A DNA stretch of 51,616 bases. Origin: an uncultured bacterium. Lineage in GTDB: Bacteria; Desulfobacterota; Dissulfuribacteria; Dissulfuribacterales; UBA3076. Below are positions 5,423 to 37,503 of this stretch, one piece after another (position 1 is the first letter of the stretch; each line of letters starts with the position of its first letter). The position numbers and the translations under genes were made by a program. The stretch spans positions 1 to 51,616 of the forward strand of contig CBETWD010000001.1 in the NCBI GenBank assembly GCA_965539945.1, written 5' to 3'. Below the pieces are notes generated by a model, which did no database searches, was not told where the DNA came from, and saw only the letters and a program-made list of their open reading frames with translations.

Positions 5423-5462
5423 GGTTTTAAGAATCCGCGCTCTTTTGTGTCTATCTGAGGTT

Positions 5463-8165
5463 TCATGTTGCCTTTTTGTTTTTTTCTGCCATGGATTTGA
5501 GTTCTGTTAAGTAGTTAATGGCTTCAAGAGGTGTCATATTATTGATGTCGGCGGAGAGTACCTTTTTTCTGAGTTCAGCTCCCTGATCAATTACAAGTGG
5601 TAGTGGCATCTGGGCCGGATGCTGCTGCTTAGGCCTCATTTTACGTACAGGACCGGCAGTAATTCCCTTTTTGTCCTTAGAGGTCTTGTTCTCAATACTT
5701 TTCAGGATCTCCTTGGCCTTTTTGGTTACTGACTCAGGCACACCGGCCAGGGCGGCAACCTGGATTCCGTAACTGCGACTGGTGGACCCATCTACCAGCC
5801 GTCGCAAAAAGACTATCTGATCCTCCCACTCTTTAACAGCTATATGCATGTTGCGCACCCTGTTGTGCTTTTTTGCCAGGTCTGTCAGCTCATGATAATG
5901 AGTGGCAAAGAGAGTTTTTACTCCTTTTTTGTCTTTGTACAATAAATTTTCCGCCACTGCCCATGCGATGGCAAGGCCATCGTAGGTGCTTGTCCCCCGG
6001 CCTATCTCGTCCAGGATTACAAGGCTTTGGCTCGTGGCGTTATGCAGGATATTTGCTGTCTCATTCATTTCTACCATGAACGTACTCTGGCCACGGGTCA
6101 AGTAGTCTGTGGCACCTACACGTGTGAATATCCGGTCCACTACACCTATCTGTGCCTCCTCTGCCGGGACAAAGCTGCCCATCTGAGCCATAAGGACGAT
6201 AAGGGCGGTCTGCCTGAGGACTGTGGATTTACCAGCCATGTTCGGCCCGGTTATAATCAGGAGCTGAGAATTGCGGTGGTTCAGCTCTACGTCGTTTGGA
6301 ACAAAACCTTCCTTCAGGGTATATTCTATAACTGGATGTCTGCCTTGGCGTATAAGTATTCTCCTGTCGTGATCCAGCTTTGGTCTCACGTAGTTATAGC
6401 GTTCAGCTGCCTCTGCAAGGGAAGACAGGCAGTCTGTCCTTGCCAGTGCAGCAGCAGTCTTCTGTAGGCGAGTTCCTGCCTCAGCTACTTGAAGCCGGAT
6501 CTCCAGGAACAGCTCGAATTCAATGGCCAGCCTCTGGTCCTGGGCAGTGAGGATCTTTGATTCTATCTCCTTTAGTTCCGGAGTAATATAGCGTTCTGCC
6601 GCCACAAGGGTCTGCTTCCTGATGTAATCATCAGGGACAGTGTCGGCCCGGGCCTTTGAAATCTCAAGGTAATAACCAAAGACCTTGTTAAATCCAACCT
6701 TGAGAGATGAGATGCTGGTCCTCTCCCGTTCTTTGGCTTCCAACCCGGCGATAAAAGACCTGCCATCTCTCTGGATATGAATAAGTTCATCAAGTTCTTT
6801 GTTGAATCCTTCCTTGATGAGCCTGCCCTCTCTGAGAAGTACAGGGCAGTCATCTCTTATGGAACGGTTTATGATATCTGCTATGTCCTGCAAGGGATCC
6901 AGAGCCATGTGAATTTCAGTCAAATCCCCTTTTTTGTCTTTTTTAAAAGAGGGATTTTGCAAGAGATGCTCAAGAGAGTTTTTTATCCCCGGTATTCGAG
7001 TAATAGATTGCTTGAGGGCCAGGAGGTCTCTCCCATTTGCAGTGCCGAGGACTGTCCTGGCCACAAGTCGCTCAATGTCATAAACCCGGCGCATCTCCTT
7101 TCTTAAATTTTCTCGAACCGAAGGATTTTTTTTGAGTATTTCCACGGCAGACAGCCTGCCTTGTATTTCAGCAATATCTCTTGAGGGATACAGAATCCAT
7201 TTCTTGAGAAGACGCCCTCCCATGGGAGTTACAGTAAGGTCCAGAACGTCCAGCAGAGTACCTTGGCGGCCACGGTCCAAAGAATTTGAAAGTAGCTCCA
7301 GGTTTCGTTTTGTGGCCTCATCTATGATGAGGTGATCGCTCAGGCGATAAGGTTTTAGATGGTTTATATGAGATGCCTCGCCCTTTTGGGTCTCAGAAGC
7401 ATACGATAGAAGCGCCCCTGCCGCCCCGATGCCGGAACTAAGCCCTGCCAGCCCGAAACCATCCAGGGAAAGGATACTGAAATGCTCCTGAAGGTCTGTT
7501 TTAGCCCTGTCATACTGCCACCATACGTCCGGCCTGAAGCTCAGAAAGGTCCCCGGGATGGCCTGTTTTACCCGGACAACAAGTTGTCCTTCCTGCCGGC
7601 TCTCCGGCAAGAGGACTTCCGCAGGCTCCAGACGGAAGAGTTCTGTAAGGGCTTCTTCTTCCCTTGTAAGTTCGGTTACCCTGAATTCTCCTGTTGAGAT
7701 GTCAAGACAGGAAAGTCCCCACGGGTCTTTGGTGCTTCCGGGATTTATAGAAATCAGGAAGTTGTTGGTTTTGGCTCCTATGCTCCCTTCCGTGGTGATA
7801 AGTCCGGGAGTCATCACCCGGATCACTTCTCTTTTGACTAAGCCTTTGGCCTTTTTGGGGTCTTCCACCTGCTCACATATTGCCACCCGGTGCCCGGACT
7901 GCACGAGCCTGGTCAGATAGTTCTCAGCCGCATGTACCGGGACACCACACATTGGAATTTTTTCCTCTTTGTGTTTGTTCCTGGATGTAAGTGTGATTTC
8001 CAGAATGCGGGAGGCTATCTTGGCATCATCCAGGAACATTTCGTAAAAATCTCCCATGCGAAAAAATAAAATTGCGTCAGGATACTGGGACTTAATGCCC
8101 CTGTATTGTTGCAACATAGGGGTGATATTTTTTGTTTTATCTTTTATGTTCTGGTTTTGTGCCAT
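5463..8165 (-). CDS. mutS: DNA mismatch repair protein MutS
   Basis: 900 aa. N-terminal TPMLQQY..FFRMGDFYEMF, Walker A GPNMAGKST, and the ATPase region ILDEIGRGTSTYDG. Confidence 0.95.
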   Translation of the reverse strand: MAQNQNIKDKTKNITPMLQQYRGIKSQYPDAILFFRMGDFYEMFLDDAKIASRILEITLTSRNKHKEEKIPMCGVPVHAAENYLTRLVQSGHRVAICEQVEDPKKAKGLVKREVIRVMTPGLITTEGSIGAKTNNFLISINPGSTKDPWGLSCLDISTGEFRVTELTREEEALTELFRLEPAEVLLPESRQEGQLVVRVKQAIPGTFLSFRPDVWWQYDRAKTDLQEHFSILSLDGFGLAGLSSGIGAAGALLSYASETQKGEASHINHLKPYRLSDHLIIDEATKRNLELLSNSLDRGRQGTLLDVLDLTVTPMGGRLLKKWILYPSRDIAEIQGRLSAVEILKKNPSVRENLRKEMRRVYDIERLVARTVLGTANGRDLLALKQSITRIPGIKNSLEHLLQNPSFKKDKKGDLTEIHMALDPLQDIADIINRSIRDDCPVLLREGRLIKEGFNKELDELIHIQRDGRSFIAGLEAKERERTSISSLKVGFNKVFGYYLEISKARADTVPDDYIRKQTLVAAERYITPELKEIESKILTAQDQRLAIEFELFLEIRLQVAEAGTRLQKTAAALARTDCLSSLAEAAERYNYVRPKLDHDRRILIRQGRHPVIEYTLKEGFVPNDVELNHRNSQLLIITGPNMAGKSTVLRQTALIVLMAQMGSFVPAEEAQIGVVDRIFTRVGATDYLTRGQSTFMVEMNETANILHNATSQSLVILDEIGRGTSTYDGLAIAWAVAENLLYKDKKGVKTLFATHYHELTDLAKKHNRVRNMHIAVKEWEDQIVFLRRLVDGSTSRSYGIQVAALAGVPESVTKKAKEILKSIENKTSKDKKGITAGPVRKMRPKQQHPAQMPLPLVIDQGAELRKKVLSADINNMTPLEAINYLTELKSMAEKNKKAT

Positions 8166-15785: not shown

Positions 15786-15814
15786 CTTTGAACCCTGAAC
15801 CCTGAACCTGGAAC
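15786..15814. repeat. Family A heptamer repeat in reverse orientation (TGAACCC units)
   Basis: CTTTGAACCCTGAACCCTGAACCTGGAACC in the tsaC-mltG intergenic region. Confidence 0.8.
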
Positions 15815-15848
15815 CGATCATTTTACGAAAAACCCCAATCTAAAGAAT

Positions 15849-17050: not shown

Positions 17051-17202
17051 TAGTTTACACTTTTCGAGGTTGGTTCTTTAATCATCCATTTTGAATATCG
17101 AACCGCAGAACAAGGAACCGCAGAATTTCGAAGGTATTATTTCGACATTCGATATTTCTTGTTCGATATTCTGCGGTTCAAAAAAATAAAAAGTGTAAAC
17201 TA
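17051..17202. mobile_element. Family C composite element: perfect 14-bp terminal inverted repeat plus inverted degenerate heptamer arms
   Basis: TAGTTTACACTTTT (17051-17064) pairs with AAAAGTGTAAACTA (17189-17202). The inner arms are ..TATCGAA CCGCAGAA CAAGGAA.. and ..TTCGACA TTCGATA TTTCTTG TTCGATA TTCTGCG... Confidence 0.8.
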
Positions 17203-17530: not shown

Positions 17531-17560
17531 AGTGGGATAAAGTAGTACAAAGGGGTAAAA
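17531..17560 (+). promoter_or_regulatory. Three 10-nt phased direct repeats (AGTGGGATAA / AGTAGTACAA / AGGGGTAAAA), candidate MraZ operator
   Basis: Exact 10-nt phasing between the putative -10 element and the mraZ start. The third unit also doubles as the SD. Confidence 0.3.
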
Positions 17561-18917: not shown

Positions 18918-18920
18918 ACA

Positions 18921-19017
18921 ATGTTGAATGCTAAATGTTGAATGTTGAATTGTGGAAAAAGATTTATAAAGACATATACCTTAATTCAAAATTCAGCATT
19001 CAAAATTCAAAATTTAA
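18921..19017. mobile_element. Family D composite element, copy 1 (arms of TGTTGAAT/TTTGAAT units in inverted orientation)
   Basis: Left arm ATGTTGAATGCTAAATGTTGAATGTTGAATTGTGG, right arm TTAATTCAAAATTCAGCATTCAAAATTCAAAATTTAA. Arms and core match the inverted copy at 37341-37503. Confidence 0.8.
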
Positions 19018-19471: not shown

Positions 19472-19680
19472 CCTAAATTAAGCGATTAGCTGTTAGCCAT
19501 TAGCGTTTAGCTTTGAAAAATCAAGGCATTACGTTAATTAGAAATAACCCCCAACGGGTTCACCCTGTTGAATCCCCAAAGGGGGCAGCGAAGCTGCATT
19601 CAACAGGGTAAAAGTTTGTAATAGTAAAACATCCTGTAATCATTAAACTAATAGCTAACAGCTAAAGGCTAATAGCTCAA
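19472..19680. mobile_element. Family E MITE-like element, copy 1, flanked by an 11-bp direct duplication
   Basis: Inverted arms are rich in TAGC units (AGCGATTAGCTGTTAGCCATTAGCGTTTAGC / GCTAATAGCTAACAGCTAAAGGCTAATAGCT). CTTAACTGATA occurs at 19461-19471 and 19681-19691. A second inverted copy lies at 43670-43838. Confidence 0.85.
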
Positions 19681-19700: not shown

Positions 19701-21458
19701 ATGCGTTTTCCTTATAAAGATAAGAGAATTTTGTTCCTTTTTGCCCTGGCAGGTCTTGTGATCATTGCCACATCATTTGTTGGTTGCTTTTGGCAGAACA
19801 ACAGTATTAATGGCGAAGATGATATTGATTCGTCCAGGCTTTCTCAACAACAAAGCCGTGACTACTATTCCCAGCAAAGCCCCCTGTACAGGGGCATAGT
19901 TCTTGACAGAACAGGAGCGATATTCGCCGTAAGCCAAAAGACAATCTCTGCCCTGGCAAGGCCTTCCAAGTTGCCGCAAGTTGATGATTGGGCACCACAA
20001 GTATCAGAAATTCTTGGTCTTGATCCTCATGCTGTGACAAAACTGCTGTCGGAGGAACACGGCGTTATCTGTCTAAAAGACGGCATTTCCGTAGAACAAG
20101 GCCTGAAGCTGAAAGACATGCGGCTTAACGGAATAGAAATACTGGAAAAATATAAAAGGGTATATCCTTGCGGTTCACTGGCTTCTCCGGTTTTGGGGTT
20201 TGTCGATCAAGGCGGCAGGGGCCTTGAGGGAATTGAATATACATATGATAGCCTTTTAAGCCATACTAATGTGTCACAAATTCACGCAGGTGGACAGGAG
20301 CTTACGCTTACCCTTGAAAAAAACATTCAGGCATCAGCGGAAAAAGAGCTTGGCAGGCAGATGAAAAGACTTAAGGCCGATAAAGGCTGTTTTGTTATAA
20401 TGAGTGTTGAAAACGGTGAGATCCTTGCCCTTGCCAGCAAGCCTTCCTGGGACCCGGAACGTTTTTGGGAACTACCTGCGACGAATATTACAAATTACTC
20501 TCTGCAAGATAATGTTGACCTGATGGTCCTCGCGCCTCTCTTAAACTGGATGTTTGAACAAAGTGAGCTTCCAAAATCAGAAATCCAACCTTTGGACAAA
20601 ATGGCCCACAAGTGGAAATGGGAGACTTTGGGTAAAGGTCTGGTCCTGTGGAGTCCCTGGGCTGAACAGGAGCTGAAAGATTTTGTCTCTTATGACGACC
20701 TGTCAAGGGATTTCTTGGGTCTGGGGTTTGGTCAGTCTACAGGTATTGACCTTCCGGGTGAAGGCCAAGGCAGCCTGTCTTCAGCCCTGCCAAGGTCACA
20801 GAATTGCTTCTTACGCCGGGGTATTACAGCCAGTCCGATCCAGATTCTCAGGGCCTTCTCCGTCCTGATAAATGAAAATGTATTGGTGACACCACACGTG
20901 GCTCTACAAAGCCCTAATGAATTCCTGACATCCGAGTCTTCTGTGAAGGACCAAAGGCAGGCCAAAATCCCATGGTTAACAGAAGAGCTTATACTTAAAT
21001 TGCGGAAAAACCTCGCGGTCAAAGGAGGGCCTTCTCTTGCGAGCATCAGGTGGAATGAACAGTCTGAGCAAATATCTACTCAATTTCCAGCCCAGGTTAC
21101 TGCCCTGGGATTCTGGCCCGACAAATCACCCAAAGTAAGTTATATTGTTTTGCTCGACGGCGTAAAAATTGATCCTCGTGAACGCCGGGGCACTTTAGGG
21201 CGAGCACTAAAAGTAGCAAAACAGGCGGCACAGATACCCTTGAAAGACAAATGGCGAACGGTGAAAAGCCAAGAGACCAAAAAAGAACTCTCCAGGATGC
21301 CAAATCTTAAGGGAAAATCCGTAAGACAGGCCTTGGATATTCTGCAATCCATAGGCATTTCCACCAAACTCAAAGGTGTAGGGACTGTGATCGCACAGAA
21401 ACCAAGATCAGGAATACCTCTTAAGGGTGTGAATGTCTGCAGTATAACCTGTAAATGA
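19701..21458 (+). CDS. ftsI: FtsI/PBP3-like class B penicillin-binding protein homologue with C-terminal PASTA domain; transpeptidase motifs appear degenerate
   Basis: 585 aa with a TM anchor and PBP dimerisation-like motifs YRGIVLDRTGAIFA and GLEGIEYTYD. Transpeptidase-fold landmarks ILALASKPSWDP, LGFGQSTGIDLPGE, ASPIQILRAF. The C-terminal PASTA-like sequence is PNLKGKSVRQALDIL..GTVIAQKP. No SXXK is present at the expected site, and KGG replaces KTG. Confidence 0.75.
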   Translation: MRFPYKDKRILFLFALAGLVIIATSFVGCFWQNNSINGEDDIDSSRLSQQQSRDYYSQQSPLYRGIVLDRTGAIFAVSQKTISALARPSKLPQVDDWAPQVSEILGLDPHAVTKLLSEEHGVICLKDGISVEQGLKLKDMRLNGIEILEKYKRVYPCGSLASPVLGFVDQGGRGLEGIEYTYDSLLSHTNVSQIHAGGQELTLTLEKNIQASAEKELGRQMKRLKADKGCFVIMSVENGEILALASKPSWDPERFWELPATNITNYSLQDNVDLMVLAPLLNWMFEQSELPKSEIQPLDKMAHKWKWETLGKGLVLWSPWAEQELKDFVSYDDLSRDFLGLGFGQSTGIDLPGEGQGSLSSALPRSQNCFLRRGITASPIQILRAFSVLINENVLVTPHVALQSPNEFLTSESSVKDQRQAKIPWLTEELILKLRKNLAVKGGPSLASIRWNEQSEQISTQFPAQVTALGFWPDKSPKVSYIVLLDGVKIDPRERRGTLGRALKVAKQAAQIPLKDKWRTVKSQETKKELSRMPNLKGKSVRQALDILQSIGISTKLKGVGTVIAQKPRSGIPLKGVNVCSITCK

Positions 21459-24400
21459 TGTTTGGTAATACACGGCACGAAAGGACATTGCGGGATATGT
21501 TAGAAGTGCTGAGACCTGCTGTTTCTATATCACCCGAGCTGGGTGACGTAAAAATCAGGGGCATGTCCGCAGACTCCAGACAGGTAAAGCGGGGATACAT
21601 ATTTGTGGCAATTCCCGGCACGGAACTTGATGGAAGACAATTTATCAATGATGCCGTGGAGAAAGGAGCCTCTGCCCTGCTAATGCCAAACCAAGATGTC
21701 CATCGTTACGTCAAGACCGTTCCTGGAGCACTTCCTGTTATAGGAGTGGACGACCCCAGGCTTTCAACCGGTCTTCTGGCAAGTGCCTTTTATGGAAATC
21801 CCAGTGAAAAAATGGCCCTTATAGCCATCACCGGTACTAATGGTAAGACTACGATCACATACCTCCTGGAAGGCATTTTCAGCAAAGCCGGGCTGAATCC
21901 TGGTGTAATCGGGACTGTAAACCAGAGACATTGTGGCATGGAGGTGCCTTCTGAACTCACTACCCCCGATGCCATAAAACTGCAAGAGATTCTGACCAAC
22001 ATGTCGGAGCAAGGGGCAAAGGCAGTGGCCTTAGAGGTATCTTCCCACGCCCTTGACCAGCAGAGGATCTCAGGGTGCAGTTTCGCTGCGTCTGTTTTTA
22101 CCAATCTGGGCCGCGATCACCTGGATTACCATCAAGACATGGAACAATATTTCCAGGCCAAGGTAAAATTGTTTTTGGAATATCCCTCTGATACGGCAAT
22201 TATCAACATTGATGATTTGTATGGAAGGCGCCTATGGGAGATACTACAAAGGAAAAAGATCAGTTATGGTCTCAGTCCTGAGGCCGAGGTAAGACCTGAG
22301 TTCCACTCAATCAATATTGATGGAATAACAGGTAAACTTGCCACGCCCAAAGGGCCTGTTTCCATAAAATCCAATCTTATAGGTTCGCACAATCTATACA
22401 ATATCTTGGCAGCAGTAGCGGCTTCAATCACCCTTGGGATAGATCACAACCATATTCAGACCGGCATAGAATCAATAACGCGTATTCCGGGAAGACTCGA
22501 TCCTGTGCATACCCCCCAGGGAGTGACCGCCCTTGTAGACTACGCCCACACTCCTGACGCCCTTGAAAGTGTCCTGAACTGCCTTATCGGATTAGGGCCC
22601 AAGCCTCTGATTTGCGTAATCGGCTGTGGAGGAGACAGAGACAGGGGCAAACGTCCTCTCATGGCGCAGGCAGCTGCTTCACTGGCAGATATTGTTGTGC
22701 TGACCTCGGACAATCCACGCACTGAAGATCCTCTTGCCATACTCGATCAGATGTTGAACGGCCTCAGAGACCTTCCTCCCCATCACCCTGCAACCAAAGC
22801 TGAAGTGAAGGTAATTCCAGACAGAAAAGACGCTATTTTATGGGCAGCAGAAAAAGCGCGGCCTGGTGCCTGTCTGCTCGTGGCCGGGAAAGGCCACGAA
22901 ACCTACCAGATAATCGGCAACGAACGACTTGCCTTTGATGACAGGAAAATATTGAAAGAGGCCTTTGGGGCAGAACGCAAGGTTCAAGGTTCAGGGTTCA
23001 AGGTTCAAGGTTCAAGGAATAAAAGACAAGGGTCGCAGTTAGAGAGTCTTGAGGATCGGGGGTTTCGATTAAAGGTTTCTCAGGTGGCAAGGGCTGTTGG
23101 AGCCAGGGTCCTTTCGGGTGACCCGGATACAGCAATCCATGGCATATCAACAGATTCCAGATCAGTAAGAAGAGGAAATATATTCTGGGCACTTTCAGGG
23201 GACCGTTTCAATGGTCATGATTTTGTCCTTGACGCTATAAAAAAAGGGGCCATCGGCGCAGTAGTCAGTTCGACCTTTGAATTTCGACATACGAATTTCG
23301 ACCTTCGCCGGCGTCCAGTTTTGTTGAAAGTCCAGGATTCCTTGAAGGCCCTGGGAGATTTCGCAGCATGGTATAAGAAATACCTTGGAATCAAGGTGGT
23401 CGGCATTACGGGCAGTTGCGGCAAGACCACTACAAAAGAACTGATTTTCTCGATCATGGGAAAGAAATGGAAAACGGCTAAAACCCCTGGGAATTTTAAC
23501 AACCTTATCGGACTCCCGCTCAGCCTGCTTTCGGCCAAATCCGATGATTCCTGGGCAGTGCTGGAAATGGGAACGAACCAACCGGGAGAAATACCCCGGC
23601 TGTGTGAAATTGCCAAGCCACAAGTGGGCCTTATTACTACCATACAGCCTGCCCACCTTGTCGGCCTTGGGGACATAAAGCAAGTAGCCAGGGAAAAATG
23701 GGAACTCTGGAGAGCCCTTCCCCAAGCAGGTGTGGCAGTGGTGAACCTTGACGACCCCCTGGTGATGGAAGGGGCCAAAGATCTAACGTGTCAAATAGTG
23801 GGCTATTCCATGGAACATAAGGCCCTGCCATCTTCAAATCACCAAATCACCAAATCACCAAATCACCAAATCACCTGCCTGTCCTGGACCCCGGGCGAGC
23901 ATGGCACTCTGCTGGATCTGGATATTGCCGGAAGCAGACTCTCTGTTGATCTTCCACTTATAGGAAGGGCGAATGTGCAAAATGCCGTTGCAGCCGCAGC
24001 TACAGGCCATGCAGTAGGGCTGACACCGGCCCGGATCAAGCAAGGGCTGGAGGAAGTAAAACCAATTTCAGGCCGCCTTTTTCTGAAAAATCTTGGACCT
24101 AAATGGAGGCTGATAGACGATTCTTATAATGCAAACCCCGGCTCTATGAGAGCGGCTCTTGAGACTCTCGATCTTTGGAGCAAAGGCGAAAAAAAGATAG
24201 CGATCCTGGGAGACATGTTGGAACTCGGAGATGCGGCCCACGACTTCCATCAGGATATTGGACGACTTTCAGCCGATACAGGGGTTGATTTTCTGATCTT
24301 CGTAGGCCAATTCGCGGATGCTGTTTCCAAAACCGCCCAAAAGGCCGGTATTTCGCAAAAGGCTATTCGCATCTTCCCTAATACGGAGGATTTGCTTTCC

Positions 24401-24523
24401 TGGATAGAATCAGCCGCCCTTGACTGCATGCCCTCTCCATCAACCATATTGGTAAAGGGATCACGGGCCATAGGCCTTGAGAGAGCTGTGGATGCCCTTA
24501 TCAGGCATCTGAGAGAGGAATAG
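21455..24523 (+). CDS. murE-murF: Single 1022-aa ORF fusing MurE (UDP-MurNAc-L-Ala-D-Glu:meso-DAP ligase) and MurF (UDP-MurNAc-tripeptide:D-Ala-D-Ala ligase)
   Basis: MurE part: [33 protein letters not shown]. MurF part: [34 protein letters not shown]. The two are joined by a heptamer-repeat-encoded linker. The ATGA start overlaps the ftsI stop. Confidence 0.85.
22979..23016 (+). repeat. Family A heptamer repeat translated as the MurE-MurF linker ([13 protein letters not shown])
   Basis: AAGGTTCAAGGTTCAGGGTTCAAGGTTCAAGGTTCAAGG, in the stop-free orientation, at the position where a murE stop and murF start would be expected. Confidence 0.9.
23269..23308 (+). repeat. Possible family C-like repeat inside murF (encodes [13 protein letters not shown])
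   Basis: TTCGACCTTTGAATTTCGACATACGAATTTCGACCTTCGC shares TTCGACAT/ATTTCGAC units with 10051-10097 and 17051-17202. Confidence 0.4.
23835..23875 (+). repeat. Family B octamer repeat (AAATCACC x5) in-frame in murF ([14 protein letters not shown])
   Basis: A perfect 8-nt period is directly visible. Confidence 0.9.
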
Positions 24524-24527
24524 GTTA

Positions 24528-25607
24528 ATGCTCTTTCATCTGCTATATCCCCTCCACGATATGTGGCCTATATTTAATGTCTTTCGCTATATCACTTTCA
24601 GGACAATATATGCGGCTGTTACTGCCCTCTCAATAATATTGTTCCTCGGGCCTTGGTTTATGAGACGCATGTGTGCAATGCAGATGGGCCAAATCATCAG
24701 GGACGACGGGCCGGCAAATCATCATGCAAAAGCCGGGACACCAAGCATGGGGGGCATATTAATCATTGTGTCCATCCTGGTCGCCACACTCCTGTGGGCC
24801 GACCTCAGGAATCTTTACGTGTGGATAAGCATTTTGATTCTTGTCGGTTACGGCACAATAGGCCTTGCGGACGACCTGCTGAAGATCAGAAAACAGAACA
24901 GCACAGGCCTGTCCGGCAGATGGAAACTCGTCTGGCAGACAGTCTTTGTACTTTTAGCCGCGTGTATAATTGCCGCACATGGTAAGTGGGATACCCATCT
25001 TAGTATTCCGTTTTTTAAGAACTTTCAGCCTGATCTCGGGATTATGTACGGTCTTTTCGCCCTACTTGTGGTCGTTGGGACCTCCAATGCGGTTAATTTG
25101 ACTGACGGTCTGGACGGACTTGCTACCGGCCCTTTCATAATAGCTGCATCAGTCTATGCCCTGTTTACATATCTGGCCGGCCATTTGACTCTTGCCCAAT
25201 ATCTCCAGATTCCTTCGGTTCCCGGCGCAGGAGAGCTTGCGGTGTTTTGTGGCGCAATGGTAGGGGCCGGTTTGGGTTTTCTCTGGTATAACACCTATCC
25301 TGCAGAGATCTTCATGGGAGATGTAGGTTCCCTTGCCGCGGGCGGTGCCTTGGGAACAGTGGCCGTTCTCTCAAAGCAGGAAATGCTGCTTGTAATTGTA
25401 GGTGGAGTCTTCGTAGTTGAGGCATTATCCGTAATTCTTCAGGTTTTTTACTTCAAAACAACAGGAGGCAAGAGGATCTTCCGTATGGCTCCCATCCATC
25501 ACCACTTTGAGCTTAAGGGATGGAAAGAGCCAAAGGTCATTGTAAGATTTTGGATAATTTCTATATTGCTGGGGCTGGTAGCAATCAGCACGCTCAAGCT
25601 GAGATAA
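24528..25607 (+). CDS. mraY: Phospho-N-acetylmuramoyl-pentapeptide transferase MraY
   Basis: 359 aa, polytopic. Motifs [34 protein letters not shown]. Confidence 0.95.
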
Positions 25608-25610
25608 AAA

Positions 25611-25688
25611 ATTTGGTGATTGAGGGATTTGGTGATTGAAATGTCTGTATTTGTCTGTGTGGGTCTGTGGCTAATTTGGTGATTGAGT
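25611..25688 (-). mobile_element. Family B module (octamer arms plus CACAGAC-rich core), intergenic copy in stop-containing orientation
   Basis: The reverse complement matches the in-frame murG module at 27789-27894, including the core AGCCACAGACCCACACAGACA..ACAGACATTTC. The right arm contains the murD GTG start. Confidence 0.85.
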
Positions 25689-27108
25689 GGAACTGAAGGG
25701 CAAAAAAGTAACAATACTGGGCATGGGGGTATCCGGCCGGGCAGCTGCTGGATGGATCGTCTCTCAGGGGGCACAAGTCATATGCAGTGACTTGAATCCC
25801 CTGAATAAGTGGCCTAAGGGCCTGGCAGACTGGTGTGACAAAAATGGCGTCGGAGTGGAGACAAAAAAACATAAGGTAGAGACCTGCCTTTCATCAGACC
25901 TGATAGTGGTCAGCCCTGGTGTTCCACCTGACATTCCTGCCCTTGAGGCAGCACGCAGGTCCAATGTCCCTGTGGTTGGAGAACTGGCCCTTGCGGCATC
26001 CTGCTGGAAAGGACCTCTAGTCGGCATCACCGGCACAAACGGAAAAACCACTACTACTATGCTTGTGGATGAGATGCTGAAAAAGGCCAATGTGCCCCAC
26101 GTAAGGGCTGGGAACATTGGAACACCATTATCCGCACTCATTGAAGAACATACTGAGGAAACTATCGCGGTCCTGGAGATTAGCAGTTTCCAGTTGGATT
26201 ACTTCCCAAGGACCAGGTACTTTTCCTTCACTCCTCCAAGGTTCAAGACAACAGCATGGCTCAATCTTGCGCCTGACCACCTTGATCGCTACCAGGACAT
26301 CAAGAGCTACGGAGAGAGCAAGGCAGTAATCTATGACTTCCAAAGGCCTGAAGATTGGGCCATTCGCAACACGGACGACAAGGAACTGGCAACGTGGAAG
26401 GACAGAGGACGTGCCAGAAGGCTCTATTTCGGGATGCTTCGCCCCGGAGTTCCTGGGGCCGGGCTGGATACCTCTTTGAAAAAAATTAACGTCATGTGGC
26501 CTGATAATAAATGGGAGGAATATGACTTAGAAGGCTGGTCCTTAAGGGGTCGACATAATATTGAAAACCTGGCTTGTGCCATACTTATTTCACGTCTGGC
26601 CGGTGCCGGTGCGGCTGCCGTACAGTCTGTTATCCAAAGCTTCAAAGCGGCACATCACAGACTTCAGTGGGTGGTCCAAAATGCGGGCATCGACTATTAT
26701 GACGACTCCAAGGCCACCAATGTTGCATCTGTACTTCGCGCACTGGAGTCTATAGATCAGCCAATAGTGCTTATCGTGGGCGGTCGCGGCAAGGGTGAAG
26801 ATTATGCTTCCCTGGCCGAGGCCACAAAAAAGGTGCGTATTCGTGGTACGATTGTTGTAGGCGAAGAGGCCAAGGCGTTTGAAAAAGTCCTGGGTAAGGT
26901 AATGCCGGTTATCCAGGTGAGTGGAACAAAAAACGGCAAAAAGACTATGAGAAAAGCCGTGGAGCAAGCAACGTCCCTGGCTGAGCCCGGTGATGCCATA
27001 CTCCTTTCCCCGGCCTGCTCCAGCTTTGATATGTTTAAGAACTATGAAGAACGCGGCATGGCATTTCAGGAAACAGCCAGGGAATTGGGGGATTTGGTGA
27101 TTGAGTGA
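25687..27108 (+). CDS. murD: UDP-N-acetylmuramoylalanine-D-glutamate ligase MurD
   Basis: 473 aa. [34 protein letters not shown]. The GTG start is immediately preceded by an in-frame TGA. The C-terminal GDLVIE and the stop are encoded by a family B arm. Confidence 0.9.
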   Translation: MELKGKKVTILGMGVSGRAAAGWIVSQGAQVICSDLNPLNKWPKGLADWCDKNGVGVETKKHKVETCLSSDLIVVSPGVPPDIPALEAARRSNVPVVGELALAASCWKGPLVGITGTNGKTTTTMLVDEMLKKANVPHVRAGNIGTPLSALIEEHTEETIAVLEISSFQLDYFPRTRYFSFTPPRFKTTAWLNLAPDHLDRYQDIKSYGESKAVIYDFQRPEDWAIRNTDDKELATWKDRGRARRLYFGMLRPGVPGAGLDTSLKKINVMWPDNKWEEYDLEGWSLRGRHNIENLACAILISRLAGAGAAAVQSVIQSFKAAHHRLQWVVQNAGIDYYDDSKATNVASVLRALESIDQPIVLIVGGRGKGEDYASLAEATKKVRIRGTIVVGEEAKAFEKVLGKVMPVIQVSGTKNGKKTMRKAVEQATSLAEPGDAILLSPACSSFDMFKNYEERGMAFQETARELGDLVIE

Positions 27109-27295
27109 TTGAGTGATTTGGTGATTTGAGAGAAGGGAATTTATTTGAAATCGCAGATGCAGGCAGATTGTGAACTTAGCGCCCTCCGGGCGGACTTAGA
27201 AAATGGAAATTCCTATACTGTGAATTTAACTATGAGCCGAGAAATACATAAGCACAAAACAATCACCAAATCACCAAATCACCAAATCACCAAAT
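27090..27295. mobile_element. Family B composite element spanning the whole murD-murG junction (inverted octamer arms around a core with a GC hairpin)
   Basis: Left arm GGTGATT units (27090-27129), right arm AATCACCA units (27259-27295). The core contains ACTTAGCGCCCTCCGGGCGGACTT (27174-27199). Confidence 0.8.
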
Positions 27296-28488
27296 TAGTC
27301 GTGGCTGGTGGCGGCACAGGTGGACACGTGTTTCCCGGAATGGCCGTGGCTGAGGCCATGGAGTCCCATGGCCGTATAGATGTTCTATGGATAGGCACAG
27401 GCCGCCCGGTGGAAAAAAATGCACTCTCAGGACGTAAATGGGATTACCGAATCCTGAACACAAGGCCTCTTAGGGGCTCAGGCCTTGCGGCAACCATGCG
27501 TTCTTTGGCTGGACTTCCTTTCTCCACGATCAGGGCGTGTTCGTGGCTTAAATCATTCAGGCCTCATGTGGTACTGGGTGTCGGGGGATATGTCTCCGGG
27601 CCTGCACTTCTTGCAGCGAGAATGTTGCGGATACCCGCAGCCCTCCATGAGCAGAACCTTATCCCCGGGCTCACAAATCGTTTGGCCTCCAGGTTCGCAA
27701 AGACAGTGTTTGTGAGCTTTAAAGAAACTGTTAAGTACTTTCCAAAAAACAGGGTAATTTTTACTGGAAATCCCATACGGAAAAACATAATTCAATCACT
27801 CAATCATTCAATCACCAAATCATTAGCCACAGACCCACACAGACACACACGGACATTTCAATCACCAAATCACTCAATCACCAAATCACTCAATCTTCTG
27901 GTCCTGGGAGGCAGTCAGGGTGCCAGATGCCTGAACCGGCTTGCCGGTTCGGCCATACAGGTTTTGTGGCAATCCGGTTTTCATTTGGAAATTATTCACC
28001 AAACCGGCAAGCTGGATGTGTCACATGTTGAGAAATTTTACAAGGATGCAAACATTCCGGCCAAAGTGACCCCATTTATCTCTAACATTGGTGAATCCTA
28101 TTCCTGGGCAGACCTGGTTATCTGCCGGGCCGGAGCGGGTACTCTGGCTGAGCTCACAACCTTGGGAAAGCCCTCGATCCTCATTCCCTATCCCTGGGCA
28201 ACTGACAGCCATCAGGATGCCAACGCCAGAGAACTGACTGAAGCCGGGGCTGCCAAATACTTCCTGGAAGAAGAAATCGGTGCTATAAAACTGGCGGGAG
28301 AGATACAGTCTTTGCTGGAGGATCCCCAAAAGCTCATCAATATGGGAGAAAATGCTCGAAAACTTGGAAAACCAACGGCAGCCGCAGAGATAGCCTCTAC
28401 ACTGATAGAGATGGCCGGACATACTTTTTCATATTCTGAAACAGAAACTAATTCATTGAAAGGTTCTACAGTACGTAACCATGTATAA
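27232..28488 (+). CDS. murG: Undecaprenyldiphospho-muramoylpentapeptide beta-N-acetylglucosaminyltransferase MurG, with repeat-encoded N-terminus and repeat-encoded interdomain insert
   Basis: VVAGGGTGGHVFPG, LLVLGGSQGA, and a C-terminal GT28 domain (ICRAGAGTLAEL). The start is uncertain: ATG 27232 is chosen here, and the TTG at 27145 in the ORF track would translate the junction element core. Confidence 0.85.
   Translation: MSREIHKHKTITKSPNHQITKLVVAGGGTGGHVFPGMAVAEAMESHGRIDVLWIGTGRPVEKNALSGRKWDYRILNTRPLRGSGLAATMRSLAGLPFSTIRACSWLKSFRPHVVLGVGGYVSGPALLAARMLRIPAALHEQNLIPGLTNRLASRFAKTVFVSFKETVKYFPKNRVIFTGNPIRKNIIQSLNHSITKSLATDPHRHTRTFQSPNHSITKSLNLLVLGGSQGARCLNRLAGSAIQVLWQSGFHLEIIHQTGKLDVSHVEKFYKDANIPAKVTPFISNIGESYSWADLVICRAGAGTLAELTTLGKPSILIPYPWATDSHQDANARELTEAGAAKYFLEEEIGAIKLAGEIQSLLEDPQKLINMGENARKLGKPTAAAEIASTLIEMAGHTFSYSETETNSLKGSTVRNHV
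27789..27894 (+). mobile_element. Family B module inserted in-frame in the murG interdomain linker (about 35 codons: ..QSLNHSITKSLATDPHRHTRTFQSPNHSITKSLN..)
   Basis: It has the same arms and core as the intergenic copy at 25611-25688, in opposite orientation. The reading frame is maintained into LLVLGGSQGA. Confidence 0.85.
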
Positions 28489-29875
28489 AAAACAACATAT
28501 GCATTTTATAGGAATTGGCGGAATAGGCATGAGCGGCCTTGCAAAGGTCCTTCTTAATCTTGGATATAGAGTCACGGGTTCTGATTTGCGTGAGACTGAA
28601 ATCACCAGGTCCCTCAAAGAATTGGGGGGTACAATTTACAGGGATCACGCCCCTGAAAATATTCAGGGCGCAGACGTGGTGGTGATTTCCTCTGCTGTCA
28701 GAGAAAACAACCCTGAGGTTCAGGAGGCTTATTCTGCCCAAATTCCAGTCATACCAAGGGCTGAAATGCTTGCGGAATTGATGCGGCTTAAGAAGTTCGG
28801 CATAGCAGTGGCCGGGGCCCATGGAAAGACCAGCACGACCTCCATGCTCTCTTCTGTGCTTCGCGCCGGTGGCCTTGATCCAACGGTCATCATAGGAGGG
28901 AAGGTGAATGGCCTGGGAAGCAATGCCTGTTGGGGACAGGGCGAGTTCCTGATAGCAGAAGCCGATGAGAGTGACGGAAGCTTTTTGCGCCTTACGCCAA
29001 GCATAGCTGTAGTAACCAATATAGACAAGGAACACCTGGACTATTATCCGGACTTGAATGCCATAATCCGGTGTTTTCTGGATTTTATAGACAAAGTCCC
29101 TTTCTATGGTCTTGCCATACTCTGCGGAGATGATCCCCACCTCAGAGAAATGCTCCCGGTAGTAAAAAAACGGGTAATGACTTATGGGACAGGACCTGAG
29201 TCTGATCTGCAGGCCAGAGATATCACCTTTGAAGGCCTGGGAGTATCCTTTAATGCCTGGTGGCAAAACTCCGAACTCGGCGAGATACAACTCAAGGTTC
29301 CCGGGCTGCACCATGTAAGAAATTCCCTGGCTGCAACGGCCCTGGGACTTGAACTTGAGATACCCTTTCACAAGATCCGGACCGGTCTTATGTCATATGA
29401 AGGCGTAAGCAGACGATTTGAGATATTGGGTGAAACAGAGGGAGTGACAGTAGTAGATGATTACGCCCACCACCCCACTGAGATACGGGCCACCCTCTCA
29501 GCTGCCAGGGCATGTTGGCCTGAACGCCGGCTCGTGGTTCTTTTTGAACCCCACCGGTACAGCAGAACCCAGATATTAATGGACGATTTCACCACGGCCT
29601 TTGGGGAAGCTGATGAACTATGGCTGACGGAAATCTATCCAGCCAGTGAAACTCCCATAGTAGGAGTCAGCGGAAAACGTCTGGCAAGAAACATCAGGGA
29701 TAGACGTGGTGGACCAGTGCACTATGTAGAGTCCTGCGGGGATCTTCCTCGGGTAGTTGTACCAAGCCTGCAGGAGGGTGACGTGGTCATGACTCTTGGG
29801 GCCGGTGCCATAGGGCGTATGGGACCAAAAATTCTGGACATGCTTAAGACAAAGGAGTCAGCGCTTGCTCTCTAA
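28481..29875 (+). CDS. murC: UDP-N-acetylmuramate-L-alanine ligase MurC
   Basis: 464 aa. HFIGIGGIGMSGLA, GAHGKTSTTSM, DDYAHHPTE. The start overlaps the murG stop. Confidence 0.95.
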   Translation: MYKKQHMHFIGIGGIGMSGLAKVLLNLGYRVTGSDLRETEITRSLKELGGTIYRDHAPENIQGADVVVISSAVRENNPEVQEAYSAQIPVIPRAEMLAELMRLKKFGIAVAGAHGKTSTTSMLSSVLRAGGLDPTVIIGGKVNGLGSNACWGQGEFLIAEADESDGSFLRLTPSIAVVTNIDKEHLDYYPDLNAIIRCFLDFIDKVPFYGLAILCGDDPHLREMLPVVKKRVMTYGTGPESDLQARDITFEGLGVSFNAWWQNSELGEIQLKVPGLHHVRNSLAATALGLELEIPFHKIRTGLMSYEGVSRRFEILGETEGVTVVDDYAHHPTEIRATLSAARACWPERRLVVLFEPHRYSRTQILMDDFTTAFGEADELWLTEIYPASETPIVGVSGKRLARNIRDRRGGPVHYVESCGDLPRVVVPSLQEGDVVMTLGAGAIGRMGPKILDMLKTKESALAL

Positions 29876-30785
29876 GGATCTAGAAAGGATAGAAGATCTT
29901 CAGGTGCGCAAGAATGTTCCGCTTTTACCGCTAACAAGCTTTCGCATAGGCGGGCCTGCGCATCTATTTCTGGTTCCACGGACCTTGAAGGCCCTTGAAC
30001 AGACCATTTCTTATCTCAGTAATCGTTCCATATCCTATAAGGTGCTGGGCCAGGGGAGCAACCTGTTGATCAGCGATAAAGGCGTGAAGCTGGTCATGAC
30101 CCTGACAGCCCTGAATCGCATCCACTCTTTGCAACATGGGAGAACAGCTCATGGCCATCCCTTTAAAACAGTGTCTGTAGAGGCAGGATGCAGGCTGAAG
30201 TCTCTTCTTTCCTGGTCCATACGCAACGGCCTGTGTGGTCTTGAGAATCTTTCGGGCATTCCGGCCAGTGTAGGTGGGGCCATATCCATGAACGCAGGCA
30301 CTAACAAGTGCTCCATGGCGGAAGCGATAGACGCTGTGCAATTTACAGGGCCGGACGGGAGTTGCTGGTTCCGGAGAGATCAATTGCAATTTGATTACAG
30401 GTCTTTCAGACTGCCGGACAAGACCCTTATCTCTGCTGCTGGAATTCAATTTGGCAAAAGCAGCCCTGATCAGATCAGGCGCCGTGTCAGAAAGGTGATG
30501 TACAAACGGAGAACCACCCAGCCTATAGGAAAACCAAGCGCAGGGTGCATTTTTAGAAATCCTCCGGGAGATTCAGCAGGAAAGCTTATAGACCAATGTG
30601 GACTCAAGGGTCTTAGGATCGGGGACGCCGAGGTATCCAAAAGGCATGCGAATTTTATTGTAAACCGTGGGAAAGCCGGTGCCGTACAGGTAATGGACTT
30701 GCTGGAAATTATTAGAGAGCGTGTAAAAAAAGAGACTGATGTAGAACTTGTCCCGGAAGTATCTATTTGGGGTATGGAAACATGA
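29865..30785 (+). CDS. murB: UDP-N-acetylenolpyruvoylglucosamine reductase MurB
   Basis: 306 aa with a TTG start. FRIGGPA, GQGSNLL, SAGCIFRNP, SKRHANFIVN. Confidence 0.9.
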   Translation: MLSKDLERIEDLQVRKNVPLLPLTSFRIGGPAHLFLVPRTLKALEQTISYLSNRSISYKVLGQGSNLLISDKGVKLVMTLTALNRIHSLQHGRTAHGHPFKTVSVEAGCRLKSLLSWSIRNGLCGLENLSGIPASVGGAISMNAGTNKCSMAEAIDAVQFTGPDGSCWFRRDQLQFDYRSFRLPDKTLISAAGIQFGKSSPDQIRRRVRKVMYKRRTTQPIGKPSAGCIFRNPPGDSAGKLIDQCGLKGLRIGDAEVSKRHANFIVNRGKAGAVQVMDLLEIIRERVKKETDVELVPEVSIWGMET

Positions 30786-31627
30786 AAATTAGAAGGCGGT
30801 CTTCAGAATTCAGGTCTTCAGCACGTAGCTCCGGCTCGCGGAACAAGTCTACCAAACCGGTATTTTCCGTATCGTGGCCTTTTCACCCTAAAATATTGAT
30901 TGGCATAGCTATAATGTGCCTTGGCCTTGCCGGCTTTTTTATGTGTCACCATTGGGCATGTCAATCTGACCTTTTCAGGGTCTGTCAAGTCCTGGTTAAA
31001 GGCTGCGATCGCATCACAGAAGAGGAGATTTTACAACTGAGCAATGTGACCGCCAAGGACAATCTCCTGTCTCTCGATCTGAAATCAATTGCAACGTCCA
31101 TAGAGGTGCATCCATGGGTCCATACTGTTGAAGTTAAGAGAAAACTGCCGGATCACCTAATGATTACGATCAAAGAACGTACTCCGGTAGCCCTGTTGAA
31201 TTCTGACAAAATCTATTTGGTTGATAAACAAGGTGAAATTATCGATAAACTTTCTACGGAAGATCCCATCTCTCTTCCCATCATTACCGGGATTGATCCA
31301 AAGAACATAAAAAATCACCAAATCACCAAATCACCAAATCACCAAATCCAAAAGGCCCTGGAATTAATATCCATGGCAAGCAAGGGCACAAGGACTCTGG
31401 GTGTAAACAATATTAGCCAAATAGACATAGCCAAGAAAGATATCTTAATACTTTATACATCTGACAGCGGTATTCCTTTTCACTTTGATACTGAAAATCT
31501 CAGTGCCCAATTCAGTAAGGCGGAAAAGGTCCTGTATCAACTCTATCGCTCAGGAATATATAAGAAAGCAGCTAAGGTTGATTTGGATTACGGCCCTGGT
31601 CAGGCTTTAACCAGTCTGAAACATTAG
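30782..31627 (+). CDS. ftsQ: Cell division protein FtsQ (POTRA domain) with an in-frame octamer-repeat insert
   Basis: TM helix, then POTRA (VKGCDRITEEEILQLS..VHPWVHTVEVKRKLPDHLMITIKERTP). I chose the ATG 30782, which overlaps the murB TGA; the track start is TTG 30767. Confidence 0.8.
   Translation: MKIRRRSSEFRSSARSSGSRNKSTKPVFSVSWPFHPKILIGIAIMCLGLAGFFMCHHWACQSDLFRVCQVLVKGCDRITEEEILQLSNVTAKDNLLSLDLKSIATSIEVHPWVHTVEVKRKLPDHLMITIKERTPVALLNSDKIYLVDKQGEIIDKLSTEDPISLPIITGIDPKNIKNHQITKSPNHQIQKALELISMASKGTRTLGVNNISQIDIAKKDILILYTSDSGIPFHFDTENLSAQFSKAEKVLYQLYRSGIYKKAAKVDLDYGPGQALTSLKH
31311..31348 (+). repeat. Family B octamer repeat in-frame in ftsQ ([14 protein letters not shown])
   Basis: AAATCACC x4 plus a partial unit, directly visible. 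Confidence 0.9.
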
Positions 31628-31638
31628 GAGAGGAAAAG

Positions 31639-32859
31639 GTGGAGAGACCCGGTAACATAATTGTCGGCCTAGACATCGGCACTACTAAAATATGTGCAGT
31701 AGTGAGTGAGTTCAACGAAAAGGGTGCTGAGATTATAGGCGTGGGGACTTATCCTTCTGTAGGTCTTCGCAAGGGAGTGGTTGTCAATATAGACAATACG
31801 GTCGATTCCATACAGAGGTCTATGGAAGAGGCCGAACTCATGGCCGGGTGTGAAATCGGCTCAGTGTTCATTGGTATTGCCGGTAGCCATATAAAGGGCT
31901 TCAACAGCCATGGGGTGATAGCCGTAAAGGGCCAGGAGGTCTCACAGGAGGACGTTGACAGAGTCATAGATGCGGCAAGGGCCGTAGCCATACCCCTTGA
32001 TAGGGAGGTCATACATATTCTGCCGCAAGAGTACATTGTAGATGAGCAGGGAGGGATCCTGGACCCTGTCGGGATAACCGGGGTAAGGCTGGAAGCCAAA
32101 GTACATATAGTGACAGGAGCAGTTACGGCTGCACAGAACCTTATCAAGTGCGCAAACAGGGCAGGGCTTGACGTAGTTGACATAGTTTTTCAGCCCCTTG
32201 CCTCAGCCGAAGCAGTCTTAACCCAGGAGGAAAAGGACCTGGGGGTGGCCCTTGTTGACTTTGGGGGTGGTACTACTGATCTTGCTCTGTTTACTGAAAG
32301 TGCCATCAAACACACAGCCGTGCTGGGACTTGGCGGCAACAACCTCACTAATGACATAGCAGTCGGGTTAAGGACACCAAGTCAAGAGGCTGAACAAATA
32401 AAGATAGGCCACGGCAGTTGCCTCAACTCTTTGGTAGATAAAGATCAGATGATAGAAGTGCCCAGTGTGGGAGGGCGCAAACCCAGGCTTTTGTCCAGGC
32501 ACATCCTGTCTGAAATACTTGAGCCCAGAGTGGAGGAGATCTTTACTTTGGTTGATCGGGAAATAGAACGGACAGGACTTAAAGAACTACTAGCTTCAGG
32601 GGTGGTTATAACCGGAGGCTCTGCCCTCCTGCCTGGAATCGCCGAAATTGCGGATCAGGTGTTCCAGTTACCCACAAGAATTGGCTATCCGCAGCGGATC
32701 TCCGGTCTGGTGGACGTGGTCAACGGACCCATGTTCGCGACTGCCGTAGGCCTTGTGCTCTATGGCATGGAACATCAGCCGCAACAGAAATTCCGGATAA
32801 GAGACGGGAATATATTCAACAGGGTAACCCTTCGTATGAAGTCATGGTTTAAGATTTAA
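31639..32859 (+). CDS. ftsA: Cell division protein FtsA
   Basis: 406 aa with a GTG start after AGGAGAGGAAAAG. Actin-like ATPase motifs GLDIGTTKI and DFGGGTTD. Confidence 0.95.
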   Translation: MERPGNIIVGLDIGTTKICAVVSEFNEKGAEIIGVGTYPSVGLRKGVVVNIDNTVDSIQRSMEEAELMAGCEIGSVFIGIAGSHIKGFNSHGVIAVKGQEVSQEDVDRVIDAARAVAIPLDREVIHILPQEYIVDEQGGILDPVGITGVRLEAKVHIVTGAVTAAQNLIKCANRAGLDVVDIVFQPLASAEAVLTQEEKDLGVALVDFGGGTTDLALFTESAIKHTAVLGLGGNNLTNDIAVGLRTPSQEAEQIKIGHGSCLNSLVDKDQMIEVPSVGGRKPRLLSRHILSEILEPRVEEIFTLVDREIERTGLKELLASGVVITGGSALLPGIAEIADQVFQLPTRIGYPQRISGLVDVVNGPMFATAVGLVLYGMEHQPQQKFRIRDGNIFNRVTLRMKSWFKI

Positions 32860-37340: not shown

Positions 37341-37503
37341 TAATGCTGAATTTTGAATTGTGAATGTTGAATTAAGGTAAAAGGCATCCATTTAGGTCAT
37401 GGACAATTAACATATTAAGGTTACTTCCTGTGTGATTAAAGGTATATCTTTTTTAAATCTTCTTCCACAATTCAACATTCAACATTTAACATTCAACATT
37501 TTT
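37341..37503. mobile_element. Family D composite element, copy 2 (inverted relative to 18921-19017, with about 60 extra nt in the core)
   Basis: Arms AATGCTGAATTTTGAATTGTGAATGTTGAATTAAGG and CCACAATTCAACATTCAACATTTAACATTCAACATT. The core ends match copy 1. Confidence 0.8.

Follow-up and report, generated by a model that had tools for sequence, protein, structure and literature searches.

MITE-type repeats (miniature inverted-repeat transposable elements) that lie in frame inside protein-coding genes are known from Rickettsia, where they are termed Rickettsia palindromic elements, or RPEs (PMC10969869). In Beggiatoaceae and cyanobacteria, arrays of the heptamer TAACTGA are found, and their placement is governed by the stop codons that they carry (MacGregor 2015, PMC4679880). 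Among repetitive extragenic palindromic (REP) sequences and REPINs, inverted doublets form the replicative unit and singlets are regarded as decayed remnants (Bertels and Rainey 2011, PMC3116915). Described here is a composite repeat module in a 51,616-nt stretch of DNA from an uncultured bacterium of the Dissulfuribacterales (contig CBETWD010000001.1 of assembly GCA_965539945.1), hereafter called the window. The module occurs once in the spacer between the cell wall genes mraY and murD and once, in the opposite orientation, inside murG. It is made of 8-nt microsatellite arms, (CAAATCAC/TCAATCAC)n, around a 33-nt core, and comparison of related sequences indicates that this core comes from a MITE-like, non-coding family found across Desulfobacterota, of whose elements it forms one terminal inverted repeat. 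With moderate confidence, the module can be regarded as passive, repetitive DNA that combines two unrelated components and is copied under the guidance of the arrays and lost by slippage.

Two inverted copies of one module

A repeat computation over the window recovers a 65-nt inverted repeat, 25611-25675 and 27822-27886 in forward-strand coordinates, whose halves are 94% complementary and spaced by 2146 nt; shuffled sequence contains no comparable repeat. The 21-mer AGCCACAGACCCACACAGACA occurs exactly twice in the window, on opposite strands, compared to 0.00 occurrences expected from 100 shuffles, and the alignment of the two segments is thus significant. This bears out the preliminary description of this DNA, in which the two segments were taken to be one module in opposite orientation, with one copy intergenic and the other in frame within the MurG interdomain linker of an open reading frame (ORF) that keeps both GT28 Pfam domains. 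The core strings given in that description (27825-27859 and 25638-25672) differ at 3 of 35 positions, and pairwise alignment places all three core mismatches between the two copies in the third of the roughly three decamer units that make up the core. The parts of the two copies are listed below.

27822-27859, forward strand: core of the murG copy, ATTAG-CCACAGAC-CCACACAGAC-ACACACGGAC followed by ATTTC, with an exact family 18-mer at 27827; it fits the family consensus and is predicted to be read in frame as LATDPHRHTRTFQ
27790-27824, forward strand: left octamer arm of the murG copy, (TCAATCAC/TCAATCAT/CAAATCAT) about four times, from Tandem Repeats Finder, predicted in frame as QSLNHSITKS
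27858-27895, forward strand: right octamer arm of the murG copy, (TCAATCAC CAAATCAC) 2.4 times with period 16 and 100% matches, predicted as SPNHSITKSLN
25643-25675, reverse strand: core of the intergenic copy, the reverse complement reading ATTAG-CCACAGAC-CCACACAGAC-AAATACAGAC, with the 18-mer on the reverse strand at 25653-25670
25611-25642, reverse strand: octamer arm of the intergenic copy; the forward strand reads ATTTGGTG ATTGAGGG ATTTGGTG ATTG, then the AAAT junction
25674-25689, reverse strand: second octamer arm of the intergenic copy, ATTTGGTGATTGAGTG, which holds a GGTGA Shine-Dalgarno-like motif and the murD GTG start

The arms have the same orientation on either side of the core, which makes them direct rather than inverted repeats. 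Tandem Repeats Finder reports a period of 8/16 at 27790-27824 and 27858-27895.

Both copies have been re-found in independent assemblies. The murG copy is present in the metagenome-assembled genome (MAG) E20 of Seep-SRB2 (PQXE01000006.1, locus L002), and the intergenic copy is present in a metagenome contig from the Joint Genome Institute (JGI; locus L123). Seep-SRB2 is a genus of the Dissulfuribacterales and a partner of methane-oxidising archaea (PMC10553843). Since each copy is seen at its own locus in an independent assembly, the pair is not an assembly artefact. A chimera induced by the repeats could in principle have put one module at two sites, and public contigs do stop within octamer arrays, as seen in L001 (which ends at 1788) and at both ends of L123, indicating that such arrays break short-read assemblies. 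The independent recovery of the two loci (L002 from NCBI, L123 from JGI), the locus-specific third decamers, and the intact murG reading frame nevertheless make such a chimera exceedingly improbable. Over 901 nt of mraY, contig L001 matches the window with 100% identity, and it differs in the last codons and the spacer.

The genes around the two copies are as follows.

24528-25607, forward strand: mraY (Pfam PF00953 and PF10555), the upstream neighbor of the intergenic copy
25687-27108, forward strand: murD (Pfam MurD-like_N, Mur_ligase_M, and Mur_ligase_C), enclosed by the inverted copies
27232-28488, forward strand: murG (GT28), starting at the ATG at 27232 according to the E20 annotation (P0001, 418 aa); the ORF is open from a TTG at 27145

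Depending on the start, the murG ORF encodes 447 or 418 aa. Its product matches PF03033 at 5e-31 and PF04101 at 4.7e-42, keeps the G-loop GGTGGH and the GGSQGA motif, and matches the solved structures 3S2U (E = 2.5e-64) and 1F0K (3.7e-53). The murD start codon is confirmed by locus L003, which has an ATG at the position of the window's GTG.

The core as a terminal repeat of a MITE-like family

The core consensus, ATTAG-CCACAGAC-CCACACAGAC-NNACACRGAC, is widespread. When the 18-mer CCACAGACCCACACAGAC was scanned against 185,579 species-representative genomes (596 Gb), at least 118 stretches matched. About nine-tenths of the matches listed fall in Desulfobacterota MAGs of several orders, including Desulfobacterales, Desulfatiglandales, Syntrophobacterales, Seep-SRB2, Eth-SRB2, and Geobacter-labelled bins. 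Chance alone would give an estimated 17 or so matches in 596 Gb, with which the few matches within long ORFs of unrelated phyla are consistent. In 136 instances (excluding the window and L002), the 5′ flank ATTAG, which forms a sharp boundary, and the third decamer are conserved, and no conservation was found beyond them.

An inverted partner lies 28-305 nt downstream in 52 of 138 instances, compared to an upstream partner in 2 and a direct copy in 6. The resulting paired elements (n = 47) are mostly 66-343 bp long and contain no ORF. Elements of ~250 bp in different MAGs can be aligned from end to end, with 68-83% identity over 260-280 nt. The family is therefore small, non-coding, dispersed, and homologous in its interior, as expected of MITEs, and its 47 pairs have the terminal inverted repeats that the two window copies lack. 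No inverted partner was found within 6 kb of either window core, so both are solo ends. The direct arms and the solo core mean that the module itself is not a MITE. The idea of a MITE-type insertion thus stands in part: the core does derive from the terminal repeat of a MITE-like family, and the module as a whole is something else.

The flanks of the paired elements read ...TTA/GCC...GGC/TAA..., with slashes at the boundaries. A TA target-site duplication, which would suggest an element of the IS630/mariner type, was considered and set aside as improbable: each flank varies without regard to the other (TTG may stand with TAA, for instance), and so they look like outer bases of the repeat. Distant inverted pairs, 0.6-5.2 kb apart, occur at ten loci. 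Translations were inspected for two of these, L105 and L050, and no transposase was found in either; ordinary genes (acyl-CoA dehydrogenase-like and NadB-like) lie between separate elements, and neither locus looks like an autonomous transposon.

The family has no description in Rfam, in a full-text sequence search, or in a comparative paper on Seep-SRB. Rfam 15 gives zero matches over window positions 21000-32000 at E values up to 1, and only one tRNA among 13 family loci. A plasmid BLAST with the core consensus returned no match, for which low-complexity masking is a possible cause. The sense strand of the core, with a self-folding energy of 0.0 kcal/mol, consists of three direct decamers and contains no palindrome, unlike REP sequences and REPINs.

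Some further features of the paired elements were observed. In several of them (L028 at ~6000-6325, L038, and L091), the right terminal repeat is split by a ~19-nt GAGCGAGCGTAGCGAGAGG-like insert, ...GTGGGTC/GAGCGAGC.../GTGGCTAAT, which suggests a second, smaller nested repeat. Recurring hairpins, TTTTGTTCGGCCGAC-N3-5-GGCCGAACAAAA and GTCATCGCTTCGCGAT, are found inside paired elements at many loci (e.g., L019, L033, L035, L085, L111, and L113) and give these elements a mosaic, terminator-like interior.

Octamer arrays and the reading frames that contain them

The second component of the module, the octamer array, has a far narrower distribution, being essentially limited to Seep-SRB2-type genomes among the loci fetched. 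The 14-nt two-unit pattern AATCACYMAATCAC, with up to one mismatch, is matched 22 times in the window compared to 0.06 expected, and all matches lie inside 23837-31342. Six octamer arrays are found in the division and cell wall (dcw) gene cluster (23835-31348), and no convincing further octamer array was detected in the rest of the 51.6-kb window. Four of these sites lie beyond the two modules and, like the spread of the core family in Desulfobacterota, were absent from the preliminary description:

23835-23875, sense (forward): array of CAAATCAC repeated five times, in frame, where the murE-murF fusion codes for MurF
27089-27128, antisense (reverse): array over the murD stop codon, coding the MurD C-terminal GDLVIE*
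27259-27295, sense (forward): array in frame at the MurG N-terminus
31311-31348, sense (forward): array in frame in ftsQ

The sites are orthologous between strains, at gene junctions and in protein linkers, and their lengths differ in L002, L003, and L004. With head-to-tail units whose copy number varies between strains at one site, the arrays are microsatellites, or variable-number tandem repeats. By computation, none of the three frames of the sense octamers contains a stop codon, and their translations have the peptide periods QITKSPNH and SITQSLNH; in antisense octamers, each frame meets a TGA within 24 nt. This accounts for the sense orientation of all arrays examined inside ORFs, in the window and in related loci, and for the position of antisense arrays at gene ends and in spacers. 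The isoleucyl-tRNA synthetase of E20 (L109, 20-805) ends in FGDLVIE*, which matches the GDLVIE* tail of MurD; the two tails lie inside antisense arrays, and such arrays thus supply C-terminal tails and stop codons. Octamers also code for the linker that joins an RsmI-type methyltransferase domain to a KdsB-type cytidylyltransferase domain within one ORF (L109, 1502-3184; L047, ~5100-6900), and this linker is 16 aa, or 6 octamers, longer in MAG069 (L047) than in E20.

Other short-unit arrays are also present in the window. A heptamer array (CAAGGTT, 5.7 times) lies in frame at 22978-23017, the murE-murF junction, and further 7-nt tandem arrays are found at 2047-2097, 15789-15815, 18920-19014, 19481-19677, 37347-37500, and 48113-48347. 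Their units include the GGGTTCA/TGAACCC family, AATGTTG, AATTCAA, CTAATAG, and others, and nearly all of them are intergenic or at gene edges. The source genome is generally rich in short-unit tandem arrays. In the window, murE and murF form one 1022-aa ORF (21455-24523). Repeat arrays were considered as the origin of this fusion and rejected, because the array-free Dissulfurimicrobium already has a fused gene of 978 aa; on this sequence comparison, the MurE-MurF fusion is ancestral.

Presence and absence among strains

Both copies are present in some strains and absent from others at 88-98% identity, the kind of polymorphism that is expected of MITEs. The murG core is found in the window and in L002 (E20) and is missing from L003 and L004, whose murG genes are 94-98% identical. 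The spacer core is found in the window and in L123 and is missing from L002-L004, in which the mraY-murD spacer holds 2-3 octamers in 24-28 nt compared to 79 nt in the window. L001 breaks off within the spacer array after three plain octamers, before any core. Since the copies are common to some strains and missing from equally close or closer ones, there must have been repeated loss, exchange between strains, or both.

The third decamer carries a signature of the locus: it is AAATACAGAC in the spacer and ACACACGGAC or CCACACAGAC in murG. L123, which is the most divergent relative with 88-92% nucleotide identity, has a core in the same spacer with the same third decamer as the window spacer, AAATACAGAC. 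The possibility that the spacer copy is a fresh, window-specific copy of the one in murG was rejected for this reason.

The junctions between core and arms are common to both loci, with ...AAATCAT/TAG at the left end and GACATT/TCAATCACCAAATC at the right end (the slash marks the junction). These identical junctions suggest that the composite arose once and was then copied whole. Alternatively, two complete MITEs could have inserted independently into two arrays, each being cut down later to a solo end. Complete paired elements do occur in Seep-SRB2 genomes (L028) and solo ends are common in the family, but both window copies share their end bases (ATTAG... and ...GACATT/TCAATCACC), which two separate truncations are unlikely to have produced. 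Independent insertion is accordingly considered very unlikely.

The association of core and array is not confined to the dcw cluster. In other Seep-SRB2-type contigs (L110, L109, L047, L013, and L107), the core is again flanked by AATCAC-type repeats. The LpxB gene of the FWG174 MAG (L110, 6945-8000; Pfam LpxB at 6e-101) contains a degenerate octamer-core-octamer arrangement in frame (...ESFNHRITRLITTDPHRQSQMDKSPNYPII...), read in the same TDPHR frame as in MurG, while E20 (L109) and MAG069 (L047) have core and repeats at the junction of ileS and a CDP-alcohol-transferase gene. This recurrence is the main evidence for a rival view, in which a tiny mobile element, either the whole composite or just its 33-nt core, is active and inserts preferentially into octamer arrays with the help of an enzyme of the host or of the element. 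Four or more genomes have a core between AATCAC-type repeats at loci unrelated to one another (lpxB, the ileS junction, L013, and L107), and both window copies are polymorphic for presence. Nostoc, for its part, is said to have small dispersed repeats nested in heptamer arrays. Yet a scan for the exact 3′ junction in 241 million metagenome records returned a single contig, L123, at the one orthologous mraY-murD spacer. The junctions at the other core-in-array loci differ, are degenerate, and look old, and neither a target-site duplication nor a partner repeat was found. An active element thus appears unlikely.

The inverted arrangement of the two copies also raises the question of function. 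The pair could act as a cis-element of the dcw cluster, either as an mRNA duplex of ~80 bp that brackets murD and serves as an RNase III site or a translation block, or as a binding site for MraZ, which would recognise the GTGGG-type repeats of the core with their 10-nt phasing. The predicted RNA duplex has an energy of -127 kcal/mol compared to -42.6 +/- 5 for shuffles, the antisense core reads GTGGG-N5-GTGGC, and 10-nt phased repeats (AGTGGGA/AGTAGTA/AGGGGTA) lie upstream of mraZ. On the other side, the spacer core is missing from L002-L004, so that E20 (L002) has the murG copy alone and L003 and L004 have neither, all at 93-98% identity; close strains without one or both copies disfavor a functional reading. 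In addition, this core is found in hundreds of unrelated contexts as a terminal repeat of transposon type, there is no Rfam match, a promoter and terminator scan of 25400-28100 is empty within the modules, and GTGGG-N5-GTGGG (up to one mismatch) is not enriched in the window. A cis-regulatory role is therefore held to be highly improbable.

The three phased repeats near mraZ are located at 17531-17557, downstream of a TTGACA and directly upstream of the mraZ start at 17564, and from their sequence they look like a putative MraZ operator. The phasing of the antisense core resembles them loosely. An imperfect palindrome, gaaccgcagaacaaggaaccgcagaatttcgaa...ttcgatattctgcggttc, lies at 17100-17180, upstream of the mraZ promoter region.

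The MurG hinge

An alignment of 30 MurG sequences shows that an octamer-coded linker is present in all relatives down to ~80% identity, with at least 7 length alleles, a number already reached among those with 87% identity or more; more distant relatives have unrelated linkers. The nearest MurG, from the E20 assembly GCA_003194495.1, is 98% identical. The core peptide LATDPHR... is found in the window and E20 only. Between fixed anchors, the linker DNA measures 107 nt in the window, 107 nt in E20 (L002), 89 nt in L003 (twelve octamers), and 47 nt in L004, and all four lengths are 2 mod 3. The core-bearing allele thus exceeds the nearest core-free allele by 60 nt, or 20 codons. It had been proposed that the module adds about 35 codons to murG; because the linker of this clade was already octamer-coded before the core arrived, this figure must be lowered to about 20.

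The length of the hinge itself was estimated correctly at 38 residues. It measures 37-38 aa compared to 19-24 in the corresponding stretch of two solved structures (3S2U and 7D1I), an excess of 14-19 aa. Relatives in which neither octamers nor core were found have short linkers as well, 19 aa in Dissulfurimicrobium (L124) and 24 aa in L125 (74% MurG identity), and their mraY-murD spacers are only 11 and 19 nt. The long linker is therefore not a general property of repeat-free MurG relatives.

An AlphaFold model built on the 30-sequence alignment has a confident GT-B fold, with a mean predicted local distance difference test score (pLDDT) of 82.5 and a predicted template modelling score of 0.81. 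The insert occupies residues 185-221, between strand 174-177 and strand 220-225, the first of the C domain. Scores of pLDDT <50 are confined to residues 1-16 (the octamer-coded N-terminus), residues 201-217 (DPHRHTRTFQSPNHSIT), and the C-terminal tail; the insert is modelled as a low-confidence loop, with 201-217 between helix 184-200 and strand 220-225. The invariant GT28 motifs are all intact in the alignment. As in RPE-type insertions, the predicted translation keeps the frame and both domains whole, with the insert in the linker. Intact motifs together with a low-confidence hinge segment suggest a tolerated surface loop, and on the evidence of the model the murG insert looks like a strain-variable hinge loop with no new function.

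Origin and spread of the module

The reading of the module as passive repetitive DNA would account for these observations in a few steps. The composite would have arisen once and then been copied as a unit between the sense array of murG and the antisense array of the mraY-murD spacer, probably by non-reciprocal homologous recombination or template switching with the flanking octamers as homology. Loss could occur by slippage between the flanking direct octamers. Selection would filter only orientation and frame: stop-free sense octamers and the sense core may persist in the loops of essential proteins, while TGA-bearing antisense octamers would persist only in spacers and at gene ends.

Several points weigh against this account. 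The recombination step is deduced and not directly observed. The third decamer is specific to the locus (ACACACGGAC or CCACACAGAC in murG, AAATACAGAC in the spacer), which means that the transfer is not recent and that the donor cannot be named. The core also stands between AATCAC-type repeats, with different junctions, at L110, L109, L047, L013, and L107, and active targeting of arrays by the core or the composite could be the cause. The proposal accounts neither for the spread of the octamer array to many unlinked sites nor for the frequent seating of cores in arrays, and the evidence comes from contigs and single loci.

In a more far-reaching idea, array and transposon end together form a "linker cassette" particular to the lineage, which homology between arrays would carry through the envelope-biogenesis genes of Seep-SRB2, and whose facing copies would make an RNA duplex that tunes expression. 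This is quite unlikely in our estimate. If true, the genes reached by the cassette would be murF, murG, ftsQ, lpxB, rsmI-kdsB, and the ileS junction; it would bring in start, stop, and Shine-Dalgarno signals when oriented one way and flexible linker peptides when oriented the other way, and the facing copies around murD would form a long-range RNA duplex that tunes cell-wall gene expression between strains.

Comparison with known systems

The module belongs to known kinds of repeats, namely MITE remnants and in-frame repeats; a new mechanism is not shown, and the finding is mainly descriptive. What it adds is a case of two layers of selfish or slippage-prone DNA that can be read as protein within enzymes both essential and highly conserved, in a syntrophic bacterium not yet in culture. 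The unit length of 8 nt is not divisible by three, and the outcome is a large number of linker alleles among near-identical strains. The MITE-like family, for which no description was found in the sources named above, has a distinctive terminal repeat of three phased decamers. In practical terms, octamer arrays can mislead gene callers at starts and stops, and they could serve for strain typing of Seep-SRB2 populations in methane-oxidising consortia.

The closest parallel is to the RPEs. In both cases, a non-autonomous repeat is read (here by prediction) within unrelated housekeeping proteins at sites that the fold tolerates, and intergenic copies exist as well. However, RPEs are palindromic elements of ~150 bp, each with its own conserved peptide, while the element described here is a single terminal repeat of 33 nt, nested in a microsatellite with units of 8 nt, a length that does not correspond to whole codons, and the two have no sequence relation. 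Bacterial MITEs (PMC10969869) resemble the family of the core, which has terminal inverted repeats of ~30 nt, a length of 66-343 bp, no ORF, and members in many genomes; neither an autonomous partner (at the two loci inspected) nor a clear target-site duplication was found for the family, and the window copies are solo ends.

With the heptamer arrays of Beggiatoaceae, the octamer arrays share a 7-8-nt unit, a position at gene boundaries, and an uncultured host from marine sediment. They differ in unit sequence, unit length, and phylum, and, unlike the heptamers, the octamers have a sense strand that is stop-free in three frames and lies within the essential proteins MurG, MurF, and FtsQ. REP sequences and REPINs are similarly dispersed short repeats that occur as inverted doublets and singlets, but they are palindromic, whereas the core consists of three direct decamers. 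Finally, Nostoc reportedly has repeats of ~21-27 nt within short-unit arrays, which are present or absent at orthologous sites. In contrast to those nested repeats, the embedded unit described here has a recognisable source, namely the terminal repeat of a larger element with paired ends.

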